NCBI GenBank assembly: GCA_964365955.1
Contig: CAYISA010000001.1
Span: 18,607-82,606 of the forward strand
Direction of reading: 5' to 3'
From: an uncultured Candidatus Saccharibacteria bacterium
GTDB taxonomy: Bacteria; Patescibacteriota; Minisyncoccia; UBA6257; GWB1-50-10
DNA: 64,000 nucleotides
A program made the position numbers and the translations under genes. The notes under the pieces are model-generated. The model ran no database searches and was not told the DNA's origin. It worked only from the letters and a program-made list of their open reading frames with translations. Below, piece after piece: positions 17,520 to 49,670 of the stretch; the stretch's first letter is position 1; each line of letters starts with the position of its first letter.

Positions 17520-19229
17520 ATGGCAATCACGCTCGGAAAGATAACAGATCTACTTGTAAAAGAGGGGGTGGTAAAAAAGGAAGAGGTTGCGACATTAGAA
17601 GAAGAAGCGAAACAGTTGGGCGCGACATTTTCGCGGTACTTAATCTCGCAGGGACGGCTTACCGAAAAACGGCTGAATGAAATCATCAGTACGTTTTTGA
17701 ATGTCCCTATTTTTGACATTAAGGAGCGAGCACTGAAGCCGGAATTTGTGGAACTGCTTCCGGAAGCGATCGCGCGCCAGCGTCAACTGCTTATTGTAGA
17801 CGCCGATCAGAAGAAAAAAACGTACTCGGTCGCGATGACGGACCCCACGGACATCGACACTCTTACCTTTCTTGCAGAATACCTGAACGGAACGATTGAC
17901 CCTTACCTCATTTCGTCCGAGGATCTGCGATTCGGGTTTCGTATTTACAAAAAAAAGTCCTCCGCCGAATTCCAAAAAATCATCAATGAGCGCATCAAAG
18001 AGCTCCGCACAACACTGAAGCGCGGTGCGGAAGGGAACATCCTCGAAAATGTTCCGCTGGTTCAACTTTTTGACGCGGTCATGGATTATGCGGCTATTTT
18101 GGATGCCTCGGATATTTATTTTCAGCCCGAAGAAGAACTCTTAAGAATCCGCTTCCGTGTGGATGGACTCTTGCGGGATATTTTTATAACGGATAAGGCG
18201 ATTAACGACGGAATTATTGCGCGCGCCAAGACACTTTCGGCACTGCGTATTGACGAACACGTGAAACCCCAGGACGGACGCTTCCGGTTCCGAACGAGCG
18301 ATACCGATCTGGATATCCGCGTTGCCATCATGCCGACATTTTTTGGCGAGAAACTGACACTCCGCCTTTTGGCGGGATCGCAATCGTTCCTCACCTTTGA
18401 AGAATTGGGTGTGAGCGATGTGATGGCTCAAAAACTCTATCAGACCGTCAAGCGCCCCTACGGAATGCTCTTGAGCGCCGGTCCTACCGGCTCCGGAAAG
18501 ACGACAACTATTTACAGTATTCTGACTCTTCTGAACCGACCCGAGGTTCATATCGCAACCATCGAAGATCCTATTGAATACATGATTCCGAACGTAAGCC
18601 AAACACAGGTGAATGTACAGGCAAATATTACGTTTGCGTCCGGGCTCCGCGCGCTCCTACGCCACAGTCCCGACGTTATTTTGATCGGTGAAACGCGCGA
18701 CGCGGAAACGGCCTCTATTTCAATTAATGCGGCGCTGACCGGCCATCTTTTGATTTCGAGCATCCACACCAATAATGCCCCGAGCGCGGTGGTGCGACTC
18801 CTGGACCTTGGCATTCCGTCTTTCCTTATAGCATCTACTTTGAACGCGGTGGTGGCACAACGCCTGGGAAGAAAAATCTGCCAGAACTGCATTGAGTCGT
18901 ATCCCACGCCTCCCAGCATCGCGAAACAGATACAAGAAGAGTTTGCGCGAGCGGGTAAAAAGAATCCGCCTCCCAAAAAACTCTACCGCGGAAAAGGATG
19001 CACAATCTGCGATAACACGGGGTACAAGGGTCGCACTGGTATTTTCGAAATTTTGGTCGTGAGCGAGAAAATTCGCGACATCATCGCAGGAACCCATTTC
19101 ACGCTCGACTCGCTTTCGGAAATGGCACGCGCGGAAGGAATGACCACGATGTTTGAAGACGGACTCGAAAAAGTGGAGCGCGGCGTTACCACTATTGAAG
19201 AACTATTCCGCATCATGAGCGCGGAATAA
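17520..19229 (+). CDS. pilB: Type IV pilus assembly ATPase PilB/GspE family
   Basis: Walker A GPTGSGKTT, Asp box, His box, and a C-terminal CxxC..CxxC tetracysteine motif. Confidence 0.9.
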   Translation: MAITLGKITDLLVKEGVVKKEEVATLEEEAKQLGATFSRYLISQGRLTEKRLNEIISTFLNVPIFDIKERALKPEFVELLPEAIARQRQLLIVDADQKKKTYSVAMTDPTDIDTLTFLAEYLNGTIDPYLISSEDLRFGFRIYKKKSSAEFQKIINERIKELRTTLKRGAEGNILENVPLVQLFDAVMDYAAILDASDIYFQPEEELLRIRFRVDGLLRDIFITDKAINDGIIARAKTLSALRIDEHVKPQDGRFRFRTSDTDLDIRVAIMPTFFGEKLTLRLLAGSQSFLTFEELGVSDVMAQKLYQTVKRPYGMLLSAGPTGSGKTTTIYSILTLLNRPEVHIATIEDPIEYMIPNVSQTQVNVQANITFASGLRALLRHSPDVILIGETRDAETASISINAALTGHLLISSIHTNNAPSAVVRLLDLGIPSFLIASTLNAVVAQRLGRKICQNCIESYPTPPSIAKQIQEEFARAGKKNPPPKKLYRGKGCTICDNTGYKGRTGIFEILVVSEKIRDIIAGTHFTLDSLSEMARAEGMTTMFEDGLEKVERGVTTIEELFRIMSAE

Positions 19230-41141: not shown

Positions 41142-42140
41142 TCAGAATTGTTCGATAAACCTTATGTCACCCGAATAAAACAGCCGAATGTCGGGGATGT
41201 TATATTTGATCATCGCGAGTCGATCGAGCCCCATACCGAACGCGAACCCTTGCACTCCACCGGCTGACGAATCGGGGTTATAACGCACCGCATCAAAAAC
41301 ATTTCGATGTACCATCCCCGCGCCCATGACTTCCAGCCATTTTCCACCTTTCAACCGAATATCAACTTCCAATCCCGGCTCGACGAAGGGAAAATAACTT
41401 GGTCGGAAACGAAAATCGATTTGAGTACGGAAAAACTTTTTGAAAAATTCCTCGATAATGAATTTAAAATTGGCGAGCGTCACATCCGGTCCCACCATCA
41501 GCCCTTCGACCTGATAAAAATTGAACGCGTGGGAAGCATCGGTTGCTTCATAACGGAATACCCGTCCCGGAACAATAATCTGAAACGGGGGGTTGTGCGC
41601 CTGCATATAACGAATCTGCATGGGCGACGTGTGCGTGCGTAACAACAAACTTTCCTCGCCGCGTTTTTCCTTTTTTATCCAGAACGTATCCCACAGGTCC
41701 CGCGCGGGATGATCGCCCGGAATATTCAGCGCATCAAAATTATAGAATTCCGATTCGATTTCCGGTCCTTCCACAACGGAAAAGTTCATCGAGGAAAAAA
41801 TGCGACGCACTTCGGCGTCCACCAGCGTAAGAGGATGGAGATGCCCCCGGGAAATTCGCTTCCCCGGTTTTGTGACGTCGATTCTTTTTTTACTTTTTAT
41901 CTCCGAAAGATGCGTAAGCGCAACAGCGATTTTCTTTTCCAGTTCTTGACGCAGGGCATTTGCGCGCGGACCCAATTTCCGCCGCCCTTCCACCGGAAGG
42001 CCCTTGAGAGATTTGAGTATTTCCGTAAGTTCTCCTTTGCGGCCGATGTATTTTATGCGCGCAAGTTCGAGCGCCACCGCGTCCCGTGCTTTTTCTATAT
42101 CGCCCCAGGCACGTTTTTTAATATCCTCAAGCGGTTCCAT
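41142..42140 (-). CDS. pheS: Phenylalanyl-tRNA synthetase alpha subunit
   Basis: Class II motifs: HPARDLWDTFW, FRPSYFPFVEPG and GFAFGMGLDRLAM. Confidence 0.92.
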   Translation of the reverse strand: MEPLEDIKKRAWGDIEKARDAVALELARIKYIGRKGELTEILKSLKGLPVEGRRKLGPRANALRQELEKKIAVALTHLSEIKSKKRIDVTKPGKRISRGHLHPLTLVDAEVRRIFSSMNFSVVEGPEIESEFYNFDALNIPGDHPARDLWDTFWIKKEKRGEESLLLRTHTSPMQIRYMQAHNPPFQIIVPGRVFRYEATDASHAFNFYQVEGLMVGPDVTLANFKFIIEEFFKKFFRTQIDFRFRPSYFPFVEPGLEVDIRLKGGKWLEVMGAGMVHRNVFDAVRYNPDSSAGGVQGFAFGMGLDRLAMIKYNIPDIRLFYSGDIRFIEQF

Positions 42141-42188
42141 GGTTTATATATCTATTATATCCGAATTTTCTCCGAGAGAAAAACGGAT

Positions 42189-42216
42189 TTGAATTTCAAG
42201 GTATTCTTAGTATATG
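42189..42216 (+). promoter_or_regulatory. Possible promoter for the tRNA pair (TTGAAT-16 nt-TATATG)
   Basis: The -10 element ends 8 nt before the first tRNA nucleotide. Confidence 0.3.
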
Positions 42217-42223
42217 ATGGTTC

Positions 42224-42295
42224 TGCGGGGAAGAGTAACGGTTGCTCGTCAGGCTCATAACCTGAAGGTAGTGGGTTCAATTCCCACCCCCGCAA
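42224..42295 (+). tRNA. tRNA-Met (anticodon CAT), initiator-like
   Basis: Closely parallels E. coli tRNA-fMet as I recall it (xGCGGGG...GCTCGTCxGGCTCATAACCxGAAGGT...CCCCCGCAA). A11:U24 is present. It has U1:A72 and A8, and only two G:C pairs at 29-31/39-41. Confidence 0.7.
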
Positions 42296-42299
42296 CACA

Positions 42300-42411
42300 G
42301 GTGGGAATTGAAGTCGACCCGAGCGCTTGCGGGGCAAGAAAAAGTGAGGGCGACGGGTTTCGAAGGAGTCCCGCCGAAGCGGACGGGGGAGAAAAATTCC
42401 CACCCCCGCGA
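42300..42411 (+). ncRNA. tRNA-linked conserved structured element, copy E1 (unassigned family)
   Basis: The 5' arm GGTGGGAATT pairs with the 3' arm AATTCCCACC (10 bp). The core carries the conserved blocks shared with E2 and E3. It ends in CCCAC-CCCCGCG-A, a 1-mismatch copy of the upstream tRNA 3' strand. A 34-nt repeat at 42279-42312 and 42395-42428 flanks the core. Confidence 0.5.
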
Positions 42412-42433
42412 CACAGGTGGGAATTGAAATATT

Positions 42434-42506
42434 GCCGGCGTAGCTCAGTGGTTAGAGCGAGCGCTTCATAAGCGTTAGGTCGGAGGTTCGATCCCTCCCG
42501 TCGGCA
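42434..42506 (+). tRNA. tRNA with anticodon CAT (elongator Met or Ile2; not distinguishable by eye)
   Basis: Acceptor GCCGGCG/CGTCGGC, TAGCTCAGTGGTTAGAGC, anticodon loop TTCATAA, T-arm GGAGG-TTCGATC-CCTCC. No CCA. Confidence 0.8.
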
Positions 42507-42510
42507 CTAA

Positions 42511-42540
42511 AAGCCCCGCCAATTGGCGGGGTTTGGGTTT
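42511..42540. terminator. Rho-independent terminator
   Basis: GCCCCGCC-AATT-GGCGGGGT followed by a T-rich tail. Confidence 0.55.
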
Positions 42541-42740
42541 CACATATAGATAACATCACCGCAGGAAATAACGCGTCCTTTTTTTGATCCCGATACAACA
42601 CGCCAAATCGGACACCGTGACGGGCAGTTATCGCGTCCAATCATTTCTACTTCATACTTACCTTCATTTCGGACAAAAATCTTTATGGCCTCTCCTATGA
42701 CAAATTTGGAAGTGTCCACCCTACATTGCCTCTGTCCCAT
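42540..42740 (-). CDS. Hypothetical small protein (66 aa)
   Basis: ORF only. No recognisable family. Ends at the shared terminator. Confidence 0.3.
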   Translation of the reverse strand: MGQRQCRVDTSKFVIGEAIKIFVRNEGKYEVEMIGRDNCPSRCPIWRVVSGSKKGRVISCGDVIYM

Positions 42741-42838
42741 GAATCTCTCCTTTCTTAATAATGAATTGATGCTGTAGCTAAGTATCCTCTATTCGTGTTT
42801 TTCGGTCAAGAACCTGTCGCGTTTACCGCGCTTTTGAT

Positions 42839-43297
42839 ATGCTTATTCCCATGACTACGGAACAAAAGAAAAAAATCGTATCCGTTGCTCGCGCGCTTGT
42901 CGGTAAGTCATACGTGTACGGCGCCGCGCCGGAAAATGTTCCAAACGCATTCGATTGCTCATCGTTTACGCAATATGTTTTCGGGCAGATAGGAATCCAA
43001 CTTCCACGCAGTGCTATCCTGCAAGCCGCCGACCCTAACGGAAAAGAAGTCGAAATTTTTCCGGACTTCCAGAATCTTGAAATCGGCGATCTACTTTTCA
43101 TGCGTAGCGACCGCGGACATTACCACGACCAGTTATTCAACGGAAAAACAATGGATATCGGACATGTCGTTCTTTATCTGGGGGGCGGAGCAATCATCCA
43201 TTCACAAAGCAAAAAAGGTGGGGTCGTCGAAGAACCCTTGAAAGAGTTCGCGCTGCAGCCGCACTATTCGGTTGTTTATATCAAGCGTTTTGAATGA
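42839..43297 (+). CDS. NlpC/P60 (C40) family cysteine peptidase, no signal peptide
   Basis: Catalytic Cys context AFDCSSFTQYVF and His context GHVVLYLGGGAIIHS. Confidence 0.85.
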   Translation: MLIPMTTEQKKKIVSVARALVGKSYVYGAAPENVPNAFDCSSFTQYVFGQIGIQLPRSAILQAADPNGKEVEIFPDFQNLEIGDLLFMRSDRGHYHDQLFNGKTMDIGHVVLYLGGGAIIHSQSKKGGVVEEPLKEFALQPHYSVVYIKRFE

Positions 43298-43815
43298 CCT
43301 ACTCGATTCCCGCTTACTCCCAACACCTGGATATTAAAGACAAAAAGTGGCGCCGCCGCTCCTGCGGAGTTGTCGCTTTCAAAATGGTACTGGATTTCTG
43401 GGAAAAACAAACATCCCCAACATTCCCAGAACTCTTGAAAAACGGACAGAAGATGAAAGCATACATTCGGGGCGTCGGGTGGAGCCATGCTGGTATTGCC
43501 AAACTTGCAAAAAAATACGGTTTTGCAGGAAAAAATTTTGATTGGTTCCTGAAAAAATCCGAATGGGCGTTCAAAAAAACCCGAATTTTTCTAAAAACCG
43601 GCCCCGTGATTGTATCGATCCATAAAGATCTGAATCCAAAGAAATCGGGGCATCTGGTGGTGGTTACTCGTATCACCGCGAGCCGCGTTTACTACCTGGA
43701 TCCCGACGCTTACGCGCGCGACAACATACGGCGCGTGGCTTCAAAAAAACGTTTTCTCGCGGGATGGAAGCGGCGCATGATCATTGTCCGCCCCCGCGGG
43801 TTGCATAGAAAATAA
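43294..43815 (+). CDS. Peptidase C39-like (papain-fold) protein, no signal peptide
   Basis: RSCGVVAFKMVLDFW (Cys) and GHLVVVTRI..YYLDP (His/Asp). ATGA overlap with the upstream gene. Confidence 0.65.
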   Translation: MTYSIPAYSQHLDIKDKKWRRRSCGVVAFKMVLDFWEKQTSPTFPELLKNGQKMKAYIRGVGWSHAGIAKLAKKYGFAGKNFDWFLKKSEWAFKKTRIFLKTGPVIVSIHKDLNPKKSGHLVVVTRITASRVYYLDPDAYARDNIRRVASKKRFLAGWKRRMIIVRPRGLHRK

Positions 43816-43841
43816 GGAATTGTTAAAGTGTAGTTGCTGTT

Positions 43842-43917
43842 GCGGGCGTGGTGTAGCCTGGTTTAACACGCCTCCCTGTCACGGAGGAGACCGTGGGTTC
43901 AAATCCCATCGCCCGCG
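43842..43917 (+). tRNA. tRNA-Asp (anticodon GTC)
   Basis: Acceptor GCGGGCG/CGCCCGC, discriminator G, anticodon arm CCTCC-CTGTCAC-GGAGG, T-arm GTGGG-TTCAAAT-CCCAT. No CCA. Confidence 0.85.
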
Positions 43918-43930
43918 CACGTGAAAAGAA
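43911..43930 (+). repeat. Direct repeat, left copy (tRNA-Asp acceptor 3' end plus trailer): GCCCGCGCACGTGAAAAGAA
   Basis: 19 of 20 nt identical to 47967-47986. Confidence 0.85.
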
Positions 43931-43959
43931 GTTACCCCTTGTGGGTAATTTCTTTTTAT
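43924..43959 (+). terminator. Terminator-like hairpin after tRNA-Asp
   Basis: 14-bp stem (AAAAGAAGTTACCC / GGGTAATTTCTTTT) with a 5-nt loop and a T-rich 3' side. Confidence 0.5.
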
Positions 43960-43963
43960 CCAC

Positions 43964-44071
43964 AATGGGATTTGAAGGGAACTCGCGCGCTCGCGAGCGA
44001 GATAAAACGCGAGTCCCTGGTTTCGGAGGAGGCGCAAATGCGGCGGGGGAGAAAAAATCCCATCGCCTGCG
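43964..44071 (+). ncRNA. tRNA-linked conserved structured element, copy E2 (unassigned family)
   Basis: The 5' arm ATGGGATTT pairs with the 3' arm AAATCCCAT. Contains hairpin CTCGCG-CGCT-CGCGAG and the blocks GGTTTCGGAGGAG and CGGGGGAGAAAAAA. Ends in CCCAT-CGCCTGC-G, a 1-mismatch copy of the tRNA-Asp 3' strand. Ends 9 nt before the RT stop codon. Confidence 0.5.
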
Positions 44072-44079
44072 CTGACAAA

Positions 44080-45144
44080 TTAGAAAATTACTTCTTTAAG
44101 TTTGTGCGTATCCCCGTGCTGCAATAACCCACGATAGGAGTTGATCGTCTCACGGCGCGGATATCCTTTCAGATTTCGCACTATCCTCCGTTTCGTGATG
44201 GTGCGAATCTGCCGATGATGCGGGAAATGAATCCATCCGAGAAAATCGACCCCGGAGGCATAAGACTCAATGGAAACTTTCTTCTCGTGTAACGAGAGGC
44301 GAAGGTGATCATGGAGGAATGCCCGAATCTTGAGTAATAACACCACGAGATAATCCTTGTTATCCGATAGGATCAGAAAATCATCGGCATAGCGAATATA
44401 ATATTTCCCCTTCAATTCCTGTTTTATAAACATATCAAATTCATGCATATAAATGTTTGCGAGGAGCTGGGATGTGAGATTCCCCAAGGGAAGTCCAAGG
44501 CCAGACCGCACCATATGAAAGCTTGAAATGACTTGTCCTAAGAGCCAAAGAATATCTCGATCTCCTATATTTCGTTCAATGATACGGGTCAAAATTTTTT
44601 GATCCACGCTTGCAAAGAATCTCTTAATATCACACTTTAGGACGTAGCAGGTGCGCGTATTATTCTTTGATACTTTGCGGGCAAATGAGTCGAAGCGTTC
44701 CAGAGCCTTATGAATCCCCTTGTCTTCTCGGCAGGCACAGGAATCGTAGATGAATCGCTCTTCAAAATAAGGATAGAGAGCCCGATAAAGTACGTGATGG
44801 AGAAAGCGGTCCCGCACAGAAGCCTTATGAATAGTCCGTCGTTTCGGGTCCGAGACGTGGAATTCGGAATAGGGTCCATGAACATATGTTTTGTAAAGAA
44901 GGTCTCGGTGAAGCGACACAAGATTGTCTGAGAGGCATGCCTCGAATCCCGCCACATCCTTTTTGTGTCGTTTACCGCAGAGAAACCGTTCCCACGTTGC
45001 AAGGAGATTTTCTATGGTTATGATATCTTGGTAAGTATGAATAATCGTAGTAATAGTGCTGTACCCCCCCGCACAAGGGAAACTCCGCTTGTACTTTTGA
45101 AGGTAAAAGAAACATACCGAACGTGGCATACCCACCTCGCGCAT
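44080..45144 (-). CDS. Diversity-generating retroelement reverse transcriptase
   Basis: RT motifs are present, including the DGR-typical LPLGNLTSQLLANIYM (xGxxxSQ) and YIRYADDFLIL. The N-terminus IENLLATWERFLCGKRHKKDV parallels Bordetella Brt WENLLDAYRK. Alternative start at ATG 45129. Confidence 0.9.
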   Translation of the reverse strand: MREVGMPRSVCFFYLQKYKRSFPCAGGYSTITTIIHTYQDIITIENLLATWERFLCGKRHKKDVAGFEACLSDNLVSLHRDLLYKTYVHGPYSEFHVSDPKRRTIHKASVRDRFLHHVLYRALYPYFEERFIYDSCACREDKGIHKALERFDSFARKVSKNNTRTCYVLKCDIKRFFASVDQKILTRIIERNIGDRDILWLLGQVISSFHMVRSGLGLPLGNLTSQLLANIYMHEFDMFIKQELKGKYYIRYADDFLILSDNKDYLVVLLLKIRAFLHDHLRLSLHEKKVSIESYASGVDFLGWIHFPHHRQIRTITKRRIVRNLKGYPRRETINSYRGLLQHGDTHKLKEVIF

Positions 45145-45435
45145 ATTTCTCGCATTGATCGGAATACGATAGGAATTCGTATTGACGAGACGTTCCTTTC
45201 TCTCTTGGAGCTTACGTTCCGAGCGTGTTTTGCGGCGGATAAATTTGAGAAGCTATCCATGGTGTCAAATGCTATTGCGAAATCTGACATCCTCAAATTC
45301 TTCCTGCAACTTGCATGGGAGGGAAAGACACTGGATCACGCGCTCTACGGAAAACTGCTTCTCGATTTAGATGAAATCGGCCGGATGCTCGGAGGGTGGA
45401 AACGAACCTTGTCTAGCAAAACTCCCGCGAAATAG
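45037..45435 (+). CDS. avd: Avd-like four-helix-bundle accessory protein
   Basis: ETYRTWHTHLAHISRIDRNTIGIRIDETFLSLLELTFRA...LDEIGRMLGGWKRTL matches the four-helix-bundle / S23-IVS family used as the DGR accessory variability determinant. Start uncertain (ATG 45037 or TTG 45097; the listed ORF starts at 44965). Confidence 0.75.
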   Translation: MNNRSNSAVPPRTRETPLVLLKVKETYRTWHTHLAHISRIDRNTIGIRIDETFLSLLELTFRACFAADKFEKLSMVSNAIAKSDILKFFLQLAWEGKTLDHALYGKLLLDLDEIGRMLGGWKRTLSSKTPAK

Positions 45436-45455
45436 CGGGAGAAATCATATGCGTA

Positions 45456-45574
45456 GCAGAAACAGAGCACGCAGTTGTCAGAATTCCAGTCATTCTCGAA
45501 GTTGCCGAGGTTGAACTTGTAGTCACCGTCCGAGTTGCGGTTCACGTTCGGCACCCTGTGGTTACCGTCGGCGT
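45456..45574 (-). repeat. DGR template repeat (TR)
   Basis: 119 bp homologous to both VRs. In coding sense it encodes DGNHRVPNVNRNSDGDYKFNLGNFENDWNSDNCVLCFC, with nine Asn (AAC/AAT) codons. Every internal difference from the VRs is at a TR adenine (T on the + strand). Confidence 0.9.
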
Positions 45575-45904
45575 GTCGTCATGGTATATACGACGCATCA
45601 TCCAGTCCACCGGAGAGAACGCCTGTCCTCCCCTGCATTTCATTCGGAGTCTTTGAATACTCCCGAATGCATCGTACCGACGGATATGATTTTTTCATGA
45701 GGGATGGCGCGCGCGCATAAGGCGTACCCGATGCGTTCCTGGCCTATTTTCGCTCACGGGAATTCGATGACATGAAGCCGTAACCGCATGTTCGAATCCA
45801 ATTCCGTCGTTAGTATATATAAAAACCCCCTCGTTTGCACGAGAGGGTCGAATCTAAGGAACTAATCGGACAAGAACTTATCCAATCGTCCGAGTGTCTG
45901 AGTA

Positions 45905-46573
45905 CTACTCACCGTCGCAGAAACAGAGCACGCAGTAGTCAGAACCCCAGTCACGCTCGAAGTCGCCGAGGCTGAACTCGCAGTCACCGACCGAGTAGCG
46001 GAACACGCGCGGCACCCTGTGGTCACCGCCGGCGTCAACCCAGAGAGCGTTCTTCTCGTCGAAGGAGACGTAGAATTTTCCTTTCGGAAGTTCATCTTTC
46101 TTCTCCTGATAGACGAGGGAGGCACCCTGAGCACCGACGAGAATCGCGTTCTGAGACCGCAAAAGGTTCATGTGATCTTCGGAGGTCACGCTACCCTTCT
46201 TGATTCCGAAGACTTTGACCTTGTAGGTCTTCCCGGGAACCAGTTGGGTGGTCGCCTTGGCGAAGTGTGAGTCCGTGATGTCGGTGTTGTAATAGTAGAA
46301 GCCCTTGCGGTACTTCTGTTCGAAGGTCGCAAGCTGGGTTCCATGGACATAGTCCTTGGGAACCGTAAGCGCGAACTCTTTGAGGTGCTCGTAGCGCGGA
46401 TCGATGAGGTTGGCCCCGTCAAACTTTCCCTCAATCGCATTTTGAAGATGCAGTTTGAGGAGATGCGGATTGAAGGGGTACCCACTCGGTTGGCGGAGTT
46501 GACGGGCGATTTTAAAAATCTGCCCGGTAATCGACTCGTATAAGTCGCCTGCGACAATCGGTTTCGTTGCCAT
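45905..46573 (-). CDS. DGR variable protein 1 (target gene, VR at the C-terminus)
   Basis: Start set to ATG 46573, preceded by AAGGA. The C-terminus ..GGDHRVPRVFRYSVGDCEFSLGDFERDWGSDYCVLCFCDGE carries VR1. Paralog of 46832-47683. Confidence 0.85.
   Translation of the reverse strand: MATKPIVAGDLYESITGQIFKIARQLRQPSGYPFNPHLLKLHLQNAIEGKFDGANLIDPRYEHLKEFALTVPKDYVHGTQLATFEQKYRKGFYYYNTDITDSHFAKATTQLVPGKTYKVKVFGIKKGSVTSEDHMNLLRSQNAILVGAQGASLVYQEKKDELPKGKFYVSFDEKNALWVDAGGDHRVPRVFRYSVGDCEFSLGDFERDWGSDYCVLCFCDGE
45917..46035 (-). repeat. DGR variable repeat VR1
   Basis: Offset of +461 from the TR. 17 mismatches, all at TR + strand T (coding-strand A). Confidence 0.9.
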
Positions 46574-46831
46574 GACGATATTCCTTTCTGTTAATGAACG
46601 CTTGGAGACTGCCAAGTCAGGTGTAAGGGTATCTTACGGTCTAAAGAGTAGTATAGTAATTATATATTGTCAAGCATAAAGATTCGAATCAACGGGCCTA
46701 TCCCCTACCAAAACCCCTACAAATGGAGGGTAAATCGATGTATAAAAAATGCCTCTCGTTTGCACGAGAGGCATGAATCTAAGGGTCGAAAAACCCTAAG
46801 GGCATACATAATGGACGTAAGCGCCAAAGAA

Positions 46832-47683
46832 TTATTCGCCGTCGCAGAAACAGAGCACGCAGTCGGCAGAATTCCAGCCACCCTCGAAGTAGCCGAGGTT
46901 GAACTCGTAGTCACCGACCGAGAGGCGGTACACGTGCGGCACCCTGTGGTCACCGTCGGGGTCTTTCCAGAGCGCTTCCTTCTTATCAAAGGAGAGGGTC
47001 CACTTGCCGACCGGAAACTCGTCTTTCTTGAGTTGCCAGGCAAGCGAGAGACCATGGGCTCCGACAAAGATCGCTTTCTCGCGGGCATACACTCCCATCA
47101 ATTCCTCCGAGGTGGATCGAGAACCGATGTTCACGATCTTGACCTTGTAAGTTTTGCCGGGGACAAGCTTCTGCGTCGCGTTCCGGAAATTCTTGTCGGT
47201 CACGTCATCGTTGAAGGAGTAGAAATCTCTGAGCTTCAACGAGTCGAGCTGTCTCTCGTGCCGATAGTTCTTCGGAACCGTGAGAGAGAAGGTCTTCAAG
47301 ACCATGAATCTCTGGAGGAGAAGCTGCTTTCGCGCTTTCTCCTGCCAGTCCTTCGGACCGTTCTTCACAATATACTCGAGATCATCCGTCTGAAATGCGC
47401 CGGAGGCAAACATCTTGCCCCAATGCGCGTCGAAATTCTGAAGCTTCTTTGCGATCTCTTCGGGAACCTTGTGGAGATTCCAGAAATCCCGGACTTCGTG
47501 CTCGCGGCCTTTGCCGTCCAGTTCGAAGAATAGATCGATGGCACCATGACCCAAGACATCGTTATCACGACACTCCGTGAATTTCTTTTTCCCCTCTTCG
47601 GAGAAAACCTCTTTGTCGGTGAGATAGAAAAGCACGGAGGTACCATTCTTCTCTACCTTTTTCCATGATATGAAATCGCACAT
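46832..47683 (-). CDS. DGR variable protein 2 (target gene, VR at the C-terminus)
   Basis: Start set to ATG 47683, preceded by AGGAAGGAG. The C-terminus ..DGDHRVPHVYRLSVGDYEFNLGYFEGGWNSADCVLCFCDGE carries VR2. Confidence 0.85.
   Translation of the reverse strand: MCDFISWKKVEKNGTSVLFYLTDKEVFSEEGKKKFTECRDNDVLGHGAIDLFFELDGKGREHEVRDFWNLHKVPEEIAKKLQNFDAHWGKMFASGAFQTDDLEYIVKNGPKDWQEKARKQLLLQRFMVLKTFSLTVPKNYRHERQLDSLKLRDFYSFNDDVTDKNFRNATQKLVPGKTYKVKIVNIGSRSTSEELMGVYAREKAIFVGAHGLSLAWQLKKDEFPVGKWTLSFDKKEALWKDPDGDHRVPHVYRLSVGDYEFNLGYFEGGWNSADCVLCFCDGE
46844..46962 (-). repeat. DGR variable repeat VR2
   Basis: Offset of +1388 from the TR. 13 mismatches at TR + strand T, plus one C/G difference at the distal edge (45572 vs 46960). 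Confidence 0.9.
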
Positions 47684-47966
47684 ATGTGACTCCTTCCTAG
47701 GAATTGTGAGGGAAACAGTGTATTTAGTTCGTAAGGTTTCTGACACCAGGTTAGCATATTGTTTCTATTTTGTCAAATCTATGTAGCAAAAGCATATAGA
47801 ACAGAGGTATTTAGCTGCTCTAGTATTCCTTACTATCTCTGTAAAATCTTTGGAAATAACGGAAAATGTGGTAGGAATAATCAAGTTAATACAATCGCTC
47901 GTAGGTCTGGAATATAAATTGATGTATCATTTCTCCTCTCAAATGCGGTTTTAACATCGTCCACTA

Positions 47967-47986
47967 GCCCGCGCAAGTGAAAAGAA
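47967..47986 (+). repeat. Direct repeat, right copy: GCCCGCGCAAGTGAAAAGAA
   Basis: 19 of 20 nt identical to 43911-43930. Preceded by TCCACTA, a degenerate match to the tRNA-Asp T-stem 3' strand TCCCATC. Confidence 0.85.
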
Positions 47987-47989
47987 ATA

Positions 47990-48016
47990 AAAATCCCCGC
48001 GTAAAACGCGGAGATT
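47990..48016 (-). terminator. Rho-independent terminator of the gatCA operon
   Basis: AATCCCCGCG-TAAAA-CGCGGAGATT hairpin, followed on the minus strand by a T-rich run. Confidence 0.55.
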
Positions 48017-48185
48017 ATTTCCGTTTGGGACAGTTTTTCTTATGGATTTTTTCGAATTCAAAACGGATATGTTTATTGCAGTAAACACAGTAGGAACAGG
48101 GACAGCTATGCTTGGCGCCTCCTAAATGACACCGGCATCTGCATTCTTCAGAGGAATGCGGAGGTATCACCTTCATTCTTTTCAT
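48015..48185 (-). CDS. Small Cys/His-rich putative zinc-binding protein (56 aa)
   Basis: Below the ORF-track size cutoff. My translation is MKRMKVIPPHSSEECRCRCHLGGAKHSCPCSYCVYCNKHIRFEFEKIHKKNCPKRK. AGGA lies 9 nt upstream of the ATG. Sits between gatA and the terminator. Confidence 0.4.
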   Translation of the reverse strand: MKRMKVIPPHSSEECRCRCHLGGAKHSCPCSYCVYCNKHIRFEFEKIHKKNCPKRK

Positions 48186-48248
48186 GCGGTTTTTCCTGTC
48201 TGAAATTTTGAATAACGCTATCTAGATAATAGCACGTCAGAGAAAAAT

Positions 48249-49670
48249 TTACCGATTCTTTTCGTAATACATTCCCAAGCTTAAAATATCCGCCTCGTGA
48301 AAATGCTTTCCGATCAGTTGAAATCCTACGGGCAATTTCTTGTCTTCTATTTTGTAGTCGCGTACGGGAATCGAAATCGCGGGAACGCCTGCAAGGTTAG
48401 CGGGGATCGTAAAAACATCGGAAAGATACATTGCCATAGGATCATCTATTTTTTCGCCGATTTTAAATGCGGTCGTGGGGGTTGTGGGAGCAAATAAAAT
48501 GTCCACCTCCTTAAACGCTCTATCAAAATCTTCCTTAATCAGGTGGCGCACTTTTTGTGCCTTAGCATAATACGCATCATAATACCCCGATGAAAGAACA
48601 AACGTCCCCAGTAAAATCCTGCGCCGAGCCTCCGTGCCGAATCCAAGCCCTCGATTTTTGAAATAAAGATCGCGGAGCGATGGAGAAGATTCCGGCGTCT
48701 CTTTGATGCGCGCGTAACGAATTCCATCAAATCGCGCTAGATTGGCGCTCACCTCCGCCGGCATAATAATGTAATAGACCGAAAGCGCGTATTTGGTGTT
48801 CGGCAAACTTATTTCTTTCATTTTGAATCCCTTGCGCTCAAATACCTTGCGAGCTACTTCAATCTCTTTTTCCACGCGGCTTTCCAAACCGCCTGTAAAA
48901 TATTCTTTCGGAATTCCGATCGTGAGTTGTTTGGGATCTTTTTTCTCTATGTCAGAAAGTGAAAAATCGAAATCCACGCTGGTGGAATCGTACTCATCTT
49001 TCCCGCGTATTGCGTCAAAAAGAATCGCGGCGTCTTCCACGGTTTTGGTGAAAGGACCGATCTGGTCAAGACTGGACGCCATTGCGATAAGCCCAAAACG
49101 TGAAACGGCACCATAGGTAGGTTTGAGTCCTACTACGCCGCAAAAGGCGGCCGGCTGGCGAATGGACCCGCCCGTATCGGAGCCGAAAGCCCCGAGTGCC
49201 ATACCAGCCGCGACAGCTACCGCCGAACCTCCGGAAGAACCACCGGGCGTGCGTTTCAAATCGTACGGATTTTTTGTTACCTGAAATGCCGAGTTTTCGG
49301 TAGAGGACCCCATTGCGAATTCATCCAAATTGGTTTTCCCCAAAATCACCGCGCCCGCATGATTCAATTTCTGTACCACAGTTGCGTCATAACTCGCTTC
49401 ATAAGACTCTAAAATCTTGGAGGCCGCTGTTGTGCGCATTCCCAAAAAAAGCATGTTGTCTTTGATCGCGAGCGGCACTCCTGCGAGCGTGCCCGATGGA
49501 GCTTCCGCCTTCTTCGGCGTCTCACTTTCAAAAACAGTTAGATACGCTTGTAAATCCACATCTTTTGTCCGGATGGCATTCAAAAACTCTTCGGTAATTT
49601 CTTGTGCCGAGAATGTTTTTGCTTTCAATCCTTCCAGGAAACTTTTGATCGTGAGGGTAGAAATATCCAT
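48249..49670 (-). CDS. gatA: Glutamyl-tRNA(Gln)/aspartyl-tRNA(Asn) amidotransferase subunit A
   Basis: Amidase signature GGSSGGSAVAVAAGM. Lies downstream of gatC. Confidence 0.92.
   Translation of the reverse strand: MDISTLTIKSFLEGLKAKTFSAQEITEEFLNAIRTKDVDLQAYLTVFESETPKKAEAPSGTLAGVPLAIKDNMLFLGMRTTAASKILESYEASYDATVVQKLNHAGAVILGKTNLDEFAMGSSTENSAFQVTKNPYDLKRTPGGSSGGSAVAVAAGMALGAFGSDTGGSIRQPAAFCGVVGLKPTYGAVSRFGLIAMASSLDQIGPFTKTVEDAAILFDAIRGKDEYDSTSVDFDFSLSDIEKKDPKQLTIGIPKEYFTGGLESRVEKEIEVARKVFERKGFKMKEISLPNTKYALSVYYIIMPAEVSANLARFDGIRYARIKETPESSPSLRDLYFKNRGLGFGTEARRRILLGTFVLSSGYYDAYYAKAQKVRHLIKEDFDRAFKEVDILFAPTTPTTAFKIGEKIDDPMAMYLSDVFTIPANLAGVPAISIPVRDYKIEDKKLPVGFQLIGKHFHEADILSLGMYYEKNR

Follow-up and report, generated by a model that had tools for sequence, protein, structure and literature searches.

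The window analysed here is a stretch of 64,000 nucleotides from an uncultured Candidatus Saccharibacteria bacterium (positions 18,607 to 82,606 of contig CAYISA010000001.1, assembly GCA_964365955.1), and its sequence is on record as part of contig JBBTZI010000001.1 of the Patescibacteria metagenome-assembled genome (MAG) GCA_038061425.1. Between positions 44080 and 47683, the window contains a diversity-generating retroelement (DGR). Read along the minus strand, it consists of target gene 2 (46832..47683, 283 aa), whose C-terminus is formed by variable repeat VR2 (46844-46962), target gene 1 (45905..46573, 222 aa), whose C-terminus is formed by VR1 (45917-46035), a single template repeat (TR, 45456-45574) and the reverse transcriptase (RT) gene (44080..45129, 349 aa). 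The accessory gene avd (45037..45435, 132 aa) lies on the plus strand, opposite to the RT, the TR and the VRs. An initial annotation, made from the letters of this DNA, had already identified a complete DGR here, made up of RT, Avd, one TR and two VRs. Realignment of the repeats, homology of the RT and Avd proteins and the codon placement of the TR adenines all support that reading.

To compare the repeats, we realigned TR, VR1 and VR2 on the minus strand and tabulated the differences by TR base. The TR, which lies outside any open reading frame (ORF) of note, aligned to both VRs without gaps. All 17 differences between TR and VR1 were found at TR adenines (A>G 10, A>T 5, A>C 2), as were 13 of the 14 differences between TR and VR2, the sole non-adenine difference within the bounds of this second alignment being one G>C at the 5' (distal) edge. 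Summed over both VRs, the adenine changes comprised 16 A>G, 9 A>T and 5 A>C. As 30 of the 31 differences fall on A, while A makes up 25% of the TR, chance is ruled out. VR1 and VR2 depart from the TR at different positions, and 20 of the 30 TR adenines are altered in at least one VR. In the reading frame of the VRs, the TR contains nine AAC or AAT codons and all of its 30 adenines occupy codon positions 1 or 2, with none at position 3. The initial annotation had described the gapless, adenine-specific alignment with the same mismatch counts (17 for VR1, 13 at adenines for VR2 and one distal-edge C/G exception), the nine Asn codons and the 20 adenines that were hit, and had named computational alignment and tabulation as the check. 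With that check the differences stay confined to adenines apart from the distal-edge G>C, and only the total of TR adenines, put at 29, is corrected to 30.

The 3' ends of the repeats share an adenine-free 19-mer, CTGCGTGCTCTGTTTCTGC, which is the same in TR, VR1 and VR2 (three exact copies in the window versus 0 expected by chance); this identical stretch had been recognised before, with a length of 20 nt. Beyond it, the TR continues with TACGCATA and both VRs with GACGG(T/C)GA, as had also been described, and the only non-adenine difference between TR and VRs at this end is T45455 in the TR versus G in both VRs. By pattern, the 19-mer and its differing flanks match the definition of the initiation of mutagenic homing sites, IMH at the VR 3' end and IMH* at the TR 3' end. 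By analogy, the 19-mer is a plausible candidate for the IMH core. The strong hairpins that follow the VRs are terminator-like only and lie 55-70 nt past the VR ends, with none directly after the IMH. According to Wu et al. (2018, PMC5758913), only about one DGR in three has a GC-rich inverted repeat shortly downstream of the IMH.

The RT gene starts with an ATG at 45129, preceded by GAGGTG. Its product contains the motif LGNLTSQ (44467-44487), which matches (I/L/V)GxxxSQ, and a YxDD box with the sequence YADD (44380-44391), as the initial annotation had noted. The best solved relative of the protein is bRT of Bordetella phage BPP-1 (8ub7), with an E of 1.3e-40, whereas group II intron, retron and defence RTs match with an E of about 1e-15 or weaker. 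The RT further matches the PHROG RT family phrog_1423 (E 5.5e-103) and Pfam RVT_1. No maturase or endonuclease domain was found in the protein, and no group II intron or retron RNA was matched by Rfam in 42000-49000. Judged by its sequence, the RT is of the DGR type.

The avd gene is convergent with the TR and divergent from the RT gene. Its first 93 nt overlap the 5' end of the RT gene (45037-45129), an arrangement on the opposite strand that the initial annotation had left unmentioned when it correctly listed Avd, and its stop codon TAG (45433-45435) falls in the loop of a hairpin that follows the TR. Avd matches phrog_3206, the 'Avd protein of DGR' (E 2.8e-13), and the position and orientation of avd are repeated in at least 45 related loci. 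The Avd matches are specific, although those to curated models stay under their thresholds, and the locus has the accessory gene of a DGR. As the RT and avd genes are divergent with 5' ends that overlap by 93 nt, either promoter has to be located within the opposite gene. We found a promoter-like site, TTGCAA-16-TATGAT (44997..45024, plus strand), within the RT coding region and a short way upstream of the avd start codon. It is the sole promoter-like match in 44900-47900 in a consensus scan, which alone is not above chance. In the overlap of the two 5' ends, the synonymous sites of avd are constrained (H3 0.30 bits among sequences sharing the majority residue).

The two targets share 55% identity across their C-terminal 167 residues, while their N-termini differ, and they are paralogues. 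Target 2 starts with an ATG at 47683 after AGGAAGGAG. Its AlphaFold2 model (pLDDT 89) shows a helical N-terminal domain followed by a C-terminal C-type-lectin-like domain. Searches of Pfam, NCBIfam, PADLOC and PHROGs returned nothing usable for the targets, sequence and profile searches against the PDB gave no significant match, and a Foldseek search against the PDB and BFVD gave lectin matches that were non-significant only. Neither a signal peptide nor an N-terminal hydrophobic segment was detected. Only 33 homologues were found among 5.8 billion clustered proteins, and those with a named source are almost all from Patescibacteria. Across these homologues, the variable C-terminal positions are those that are templated by TR adenines. 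We hold with moderate, not strong, confidence that both targets end in a predicted C-type-lectin-like domain, an assignment for which the model and its C-type-lectin matches speak. According to Roux et al. (2021, PMC8144416), CPR (Candidate Phyla Radiation) targets lack recognisable domains and probably contain new C-type lectin (C-Lec) variants, and the predicted lectin-like C-termini without a Pfam domain agree with that account.

Each target gene is followed on the minus strand by a hairpin resembling an intrinsic terminator, at 45824..45849 after target 1 (terminator scan and sequence reading) and at 46749..46774 after target 2 (terminator scan). Together with some 20 nt on their upstream side, the two hairpins nearly duplicate each other (45823-45860 and 46746-46810), and this resemblance suggests a tandem duplication of target plus terminator. 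An Rfam match to suhB/mmgR on the target 2 terminator (46735-46810) is probably spurious, at 34.5 bits versus a gathering threshold of 41.

To place the element among its relatives, we made a census of 76 loci with RT relatives at 35-74% identity, nearly all of them in Patescibacteria MAGs, and scored each locus for Avd and for A-biased repeat pairs. The order target (with VR), TR, avd on the reverse strand and RT was found in 45 of the 76 loci, and in most of these 45 the avd stop codon lies 4-61 nt from the TR. Wu et al. (2018, PMC5758913) class a TR-(avd)-RT order with avd on the reverse strand as architecture B3, to which they assign 90% of the DGRs in CPR. The Patescibacteria DGR clade (clade 2) is cellular, and typically neither transmembrane nor other domains can be recognised in its targets (Roux et al. 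2021, PMC8144416). The locus is a complete, intact-looking chromosomal DGR of the CPR type, with architecture B3 in the terms of Wu et al. and in clade 2 of Roux et al., and is standard for its lineage. It shares with these elements the gene order, the reverse-strand avd and the chromosomal setting, as well as targets without signal peptide or recognisable domain whose VR forms the C-terminus of a predicted lectin-like fold. RT relatives with 41-74% identity likewise come overwhelmingly from Patescibacteria MAGs. At the gene level, nothing essential sets the element apart. It has two tandem paralogous targets, and two VRs are also present in five other loci (L009, L037, L039, L067 and L074). 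The initial annotation had considered the layout unusual and had pointed to the two targets, and by this census both are normal for the lineage. A phage origin was considered and rejected: no RT relative was found in IMG/VR by a peptide-seed method, and the PHROG matches are confined to RT and Avd.

The TR is part of a larger conserved region. The approximately 230 nt between the target 1 terminator and the TR are non-coding and conserved across loci. They begin with a -10 box, TATACT (45812..45817, minus strand), which reads TATAAT or TATACT in relatives and is often preceded by TG. In 28 loci, A2, A4 and T6 of this hexamer are invariant and T1 is nearly so. From this conservation we infer that the box is the promoter of a TR RNA, with a predicted start near 45806-45804. 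The 5' domain of this RNA would contain hairpin H1 (45791-45770) and compound hairpin H2 (45744-45706), after which a conserved A-tract follows. Together, H1 and H2 have 21 predicted pairs, 18 of which show compensatory changes among 28 sequences.

Directly 5' of the TR, a three-way junction is predicted (45576..45690, minus strand). Its closing helix P1 has 12 bp (45677-45666 paired with 45599-45588) and encloses hairpin P2 of 4-5 bp (45663-45646) and hairpin P3 of 9 bp (45633-45612). Between P2 and P3 lies a conserved, A-rich single strand of about 13 nt, GAAUGAAAUGCAG (also written GAAUAAAAUACAG; 45645-45634), and between P3 and the 3' strand of P1 lies a second conserved single strand, GGUGGACUGGAU (also written GGUGGAnnGGAUG; 45611-45600). 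RNAalifold predicted 25 pairs in the junction, 23 of them with compensatory changes. In the 28 sequences, 94.8% of the cells were paired, compared with 67% when shuffled (0/500) and 37-52% when slid, and the covariation score was 0.90 versus 0.33.

We built a covariance model, R1, from the junction alignment. In 52 of 77 sources, R1 matched each locus exactly once. Every match was on the strand of the TR and just on its 5' side, and 24 of the matched sequences lie outside the seed. The match in the window scored 87.8 bits (E 2e-20). In the larger, R1-fitted alignment, pairing in the junction was 95.5%. As control DNA we used viral stretches selected by a degenerate primary-sequence pattern (120 stretches), of which 80 were checked. 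None of these was R1-positive, and R1 gave 0 matches in 700 kb of unrelated viral DNA that had been preselected for a primary-sequence motif. The conserved, covarying upstream domain is a property of the whole B3 class, and not of the window copy alone. A search of 45380-45860 against Rfam 15 (4227 families) gave no match even at E up to 10, and no description of an upstream structured domain in CPR DGRs was found in the searchable literature, which does not cover most subscription journals or Paul et al. 2017. A pseudoknot between CCUUUUAUG, upstream of the A-tract, and junction strand AAUAAAAU was considered and rejected, as variants such as UUUCAUG are uncompensated in alignments judged by eye.

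One further R1 match deserves mention. In a Pacearchaeota contig (JAPLXX010000032.1, locus L067), a weak match (1083-1184, 23.6 bits, E 0.007) lies directly 5' of a TR (1190-1281) that is followed directly by the RT, with no avd between them, and that has two VRs. On the strength of this single weak match, DPANN archaeal DGRs that have a TR-RT architecture and lack avd may share the upstream RNA motif.

The upstream domain is linked to the other end of the TR by a long-range duplex, P0. Its 5' strand, AAAUCAUAUCCGUCG (45678..45692, minus strand), ends at the invariant G45678, which abuts P1. Its 3' strand, CUACGCAUAUGAUUU (45442..45456, minus strand), takes in the final base of the TR together with the IMH*-like flank in which TR and VRs differ. 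The TR flank TACGCATA described above is thus one strand of a covarying helix. The P0 strands change in sequence between clades while their complementarity is kept: in 28 loci, 80% of the cells of the core helix are paired and 8 of its 11 pairs show compensatory changes. In 17 diverse loci, the cognate duplex had a mean of -11.9 kcal/mol versus -6.7 for non-cognate combinations (0/20000 permutations as good), and the cognate partner ranked first in 9 loci and first or second in 13. We infer that P0 is a template:primer duplex, in which, by analogy with the phage system discussed below, the 3' strand would be the template side and the 5' strand the primer.

Immediately 3' of the TR flank lies the hairpin CTCCCGC-TATTTC-GCGGGAG followed by TTTT (45418..45441, minus strand), which was found in the terminator scan. 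A stable hairpin with a T-run is present at this position in 42 of 44 loci. The sequences of the stem are very different in distant loci, but pairing is kept in 98% of the cells, with compensatory changes at three of seven pairs. The hairpin looks like an intrinsic terminator of the TR RNA and, by its position, is the counterpart of the Avd-binding stem-loop in the BPP-1 RNA. The elements of the RNA are therefore ordered as -10 box, H1/H2, P0 5' strand, P1-P3 junction, TR, P0 3' strand and hairpin with T-run.

This order can be compared with that of the BPP-1 ribonucleoprotein (RNP). In the BPP-1 RNP, the TR 3' end (TR 117-129) pairs with spacer positions 47-56, ending at the priming A56, and two nucleotides further on, spacer positions 59-70 pair with 11 nt just upstream of the TR, the 'cPRT stop' (Handa et al., 10.1101/2023.10.23.563531; PDB 8ub7). 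The spacer then continues with a short stem-loop, A-minor adenosines, a 12-nt single-stranded 'thumb ring' and a long RT-binding stem-loop, while an Avd-binding stem-loop directly follows the TR (Handa et al.). The BPP-1 DGR (mtd-avd-TR-brt) and the DGR described here have homologous RTs and share Avd, adenine-specific TR/VR differences and a target with a C-type-lectin fold, which is predicted in the present case. Their RNAs have the same circular order of elements: the template:primer duplex, formed at the 3' end of the TR, a second duplex next to it that has one of its strands just 5' of the TR, then a short stem-loop, a stretch that is A-rich or single-stranded, a longer stem-loop and a stem-loop right behind the TR. 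We propose that P1 is the counterpart of the stop duplex, P2 of the short stem-loop and P3 of the RT-binding stem-loop. The two differ in that avd is on the other strand here, and the primer-side elements lie 5' of the TR here and 3' of it in BPP-1. The chain would be opened between the post-TR stem-loop and the primer strand in the CPR RNA, but after the RT-binding stem-loop in BPP-1. Unlike BPP-1, the RNA described here has an extra 5' domain of about 110 nt (H1 and H2), a predicted promoter of its own and a terminator-like 3' end. There is no similarity in sequence or to Rfam RT-10, and the host is cellular here and a phage there.

In topology only, the RNA also resembles the msr-msd RNA of retrons: the template is paired at its 3' end with a strand from the 5' side, the primer strand and the template are separated by stem-loops, the unit is compact and stands alone, and an invariant G (45678) is found at the end of the duplex, where retrons have their priming G. 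Unlike in retrons, the RT is of the DGR type, the template is protein-coding-like with cognate VRs, Avd is present and no multicopy single-stranded DNA (msDNA) is known; priming from the G is suggested here by analogy. Structured RNAs beside bacterial RT genes are listed in Rfam as RT-1 to RT-19, of which RT-10 is the BPP-1 spacer of a DGR (Weinberg et al. 2017, PMC5737381), and none of these families matches 45380-45860.

Taken as a whole, the account that we favour, with a probability of about 0.8, is that of an intact-looking CPR B3 DGR with a structured template RNA and a cDNA mechanism read from that structure. In this account, a unit of about 390 nt would be transcribed on its own, end at the post-TR hairpin and assemble with RT and Avd. 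Synthesis of cDNA would start at the TR 3' end, around G45457, beside P0, and would be primed in cis from the 5' strand of P0, with the invariant G45678 at the P0/P1 junction playing the part of spacer A56 of phage BPP-1 by analogy. The RT would copy the TR, misincorporate opposite adenines and halt at P1, and the cDNA would replace VR1 or VR2 by mutagenic retrohoming, in which the adenine-free 19-mer and GACGG at the VR ends may serve as IMH. The outcome would be variation at up to 30 nucleotide positions, in about 21 codons, on the putative ligand-binding face of two proteins without a signal peptide. One detail agrees with this model: T45455, which is G in the VRs, sits just past G45457, the base predicted to be templated first, and the VRs would therefore never receive a copy of it. 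The most specific part of the proposal concerns the CPR B3 template RNA, which would stand alone as a gene of about 390 nt that has a promoter and a terminator to itself. Its functional elements would be those of the BPP-1 DGR RNA in circularly permuted order, with priming from G45678 and a retron-like msr-msd topology. We put this part forward tentatively, at a little short of even odds.

The only mechanistic model for reverse transcription in DGRs concerns a phage element with a different gene order, and a covarying 5' domain paired to the TR 3' flank provides a concrete model for how cDNA synthesis could be primed and stopped in B3 elements. It suggests that DGR RNAs can be permuted, and it suggests a structural link to retron RNAs. 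If true, the permuted RNA would be of interest to specialists on DGRs and retrons, and as a compact, self-contained unit the TR RNA is a candidate for reconstitution or engineering. In annotation, the covariance model marks the position and strand of the TR in the B3 class where VRs are not detectable. The locus itself is one more DGR in a class that has been catalogued by hundreds in CPR genomes, and the element as such changes little. As B3 makes up approximately 90% of the DGRs of the CPR (Wu et al.), which is among the DGR-richest lineages, the RNA result could matter more than the element.

Several observations weigh against this account. The transcript ends, the priming site and the RNP contacts are read from conservation and from the BPP-1 structure. 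Handa et al. (bioRxiv 10.1101/2023.10.23.563531) take the post-TR hairpins as Avd-binding and seek the remaining RNA downstream of the TR. The single-sequence fold of the 389-nt RNA was not better than that of shuffles (z -1.13), which is uninformative either way. VR1, VR2 and TR are identical in the assemblies of at least two further read sets (L002, ERR3858133; L199, ERR3858135), the exact target 1 protein was found on 11 contigs, and alleles with variant VRs were not seen in 90% protein clusters. The matches of Avd to NCBIfam DivGenRetAVD (E 2.6e-12, 47 bits versus 80) and to Pfam bAvd (E 8e-8, 33 bits versus 40) are below their cut-offs. For the RT, the top NCBIfam match is a group II intron RT model (131 bits versus a cut-off of 300), and a DGR-specific RT model is absent from the NCBIfam matches of this protein. 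Three alternatives were weighed.

The strongest of these is a DGR with a template RNA like that of BPP-1, in which the spacer 3' of the TR would run antisense through avd, the post-TR hairpin would be Avd-binding only and the upstream domain would serve another end, such as the stability of the transcript, control over how much TR RNA is present, or a small RNA of its own. In BPP-1, every element for priming or RT binding does lie 3' of the TR. In CPR DGRs, Avd-binding stem-loops as well as stop duplexes were reported by Handa et al., whose search was confined to 40 nt on the upstream and 100 nt on the downstream side of the TR. Intrinsic terminators are also rarely complete, which makes read-through towards the RT possible, and the T-run has only 3-4 nt in some loci. 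However, the third-codon positions of avd in the 100 nt past the hairpin are as variable as in the rest of the gene (1.4-1.7 bits), and constraint near the TR is confined to the last 8 codons, which are those that overlap the hairpin. As these positions vary freely, a conserved RNA antisense through avd is not visible. No structured spacer of the BPP-1 type was found 3' of the TR, where only the hairpin and T-run occur; the structure that is conserved is on the 5' side instead. There, 230 nt of non-coding sequence are conserved and covary, the covariation in P0 ties this upstream domain to the expected cDNA start at the TR 3' flank, and Rfam RT-10, the motif of the BPP-1 spacer, has no match. 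We consider a BPP-1-like arrangement unlikely on this evidence, though it deserves to be taken seriously.

A second alternative, which we regard as less probable again, is that the DGR is a fossil: its sequence is intact, diversification has ended, and VR1 and VR2 are fixed alleles from past activity. The identity of VRs and TR in assemblies of several runs, the recurrence of the target 1 protein on 11 contigs and the lack of variant alleles in the 90% clusters would be expected in this case. These runs are apparently from one study, though, and as consensus assemblies hide minority alleles, identical VRs are only weak evidence against activity. Against inactivity stand the intact ORFs of RT and avd with the catalytic motifs kept, the TR adenines, of which 30 of 30 are still at codon positions 1 or 2, and the RNA helices, all intact in the window copy with its R1 score of 87.8 bits. 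Moreover, the positions that depart from the TR are different ones in VR1 and in VR2, which is what separate homing events would produce.

The last alternative, that this is no DGR but a gene duplication and a pseudogene fragment beside an unrelated group II intron, retron or defence RT, draws on the NCBIfam group II intron RT/maturase match and on the many defence-associated RT (DRT) and retron models listed by PADLOC, all far below curated cut-offs or generic to the RT domain, and is effectively refuted by the adenine-specific differences (30/31 on TR adenines), by bRT as by far the best solved relative and by the recurrence of the cassette with A-biased TR/VR pairs in 45 loci, next to which the protein has no maturase or endonuclease domain and Rfam finds no group II intron or retron RNA. 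We likewise rejected group II intron identity for the RT itself, as the NCBIfam match covers the RT domain only and there is no intron RNA in 42000-49000, and retron identity, as retron RTs match at E 1e-15 or weaker and no retron RNA family matches.

Two observations concern the census loci rather than the window. CPR-type RT contigs are filed under MAGs of Gammaproteobacteria, Thermodesulfovibrionales, Pedobacter or Ignavibacteriaceae (L006, L017, L024, L037, L039, L049-L051, L054, L058, L060, L063 and L070, and also protein P0005). Most of those with enough upstream sequence show avd, TR and the RNA motif, while L060 shows the RT only. These contigs are probably mis-binned or mislabelled and not horizontal transfers. 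In L030 (1935-2847), a VR, a TR and a reverse-strand avd are found downstream of the matched RT, with no R1 match at E < 0.01, and the locus may hold a further cassette of greater divergence, or one that was rearranged.

On the RT side of the element, in 43842-44075, the last 18 nt of a tRNA-Asp gene (43901-43918) have a copy at 44055-44072 that differs at one base. The RT stop codon is only a few nucleotides away, and 0.23 matches were expected where two were found. This copy could have been left by an attachment site, or it could be what remains of a tRNA that decayed. Integration at tRNA-Asp was considered and rejected, as related loci have no tRNA beside the RT and the GC content of the cassette equals that of the window. 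On the same side, NlpC/P60-like and peptidase C39-like ORFs flank the DGR, and upstream of them lie two tRNA-Met (CAT) genes (42224-42296 and 42434-42507), 140 nt apart. At the other end, the interval that separates gatA from target 2 contains a small ORF rich in cysteine (56 aa; …CRCRCH…CPCSYCVYC…; 48015-48185, minus strand), after which comes a terminator-like sequence.

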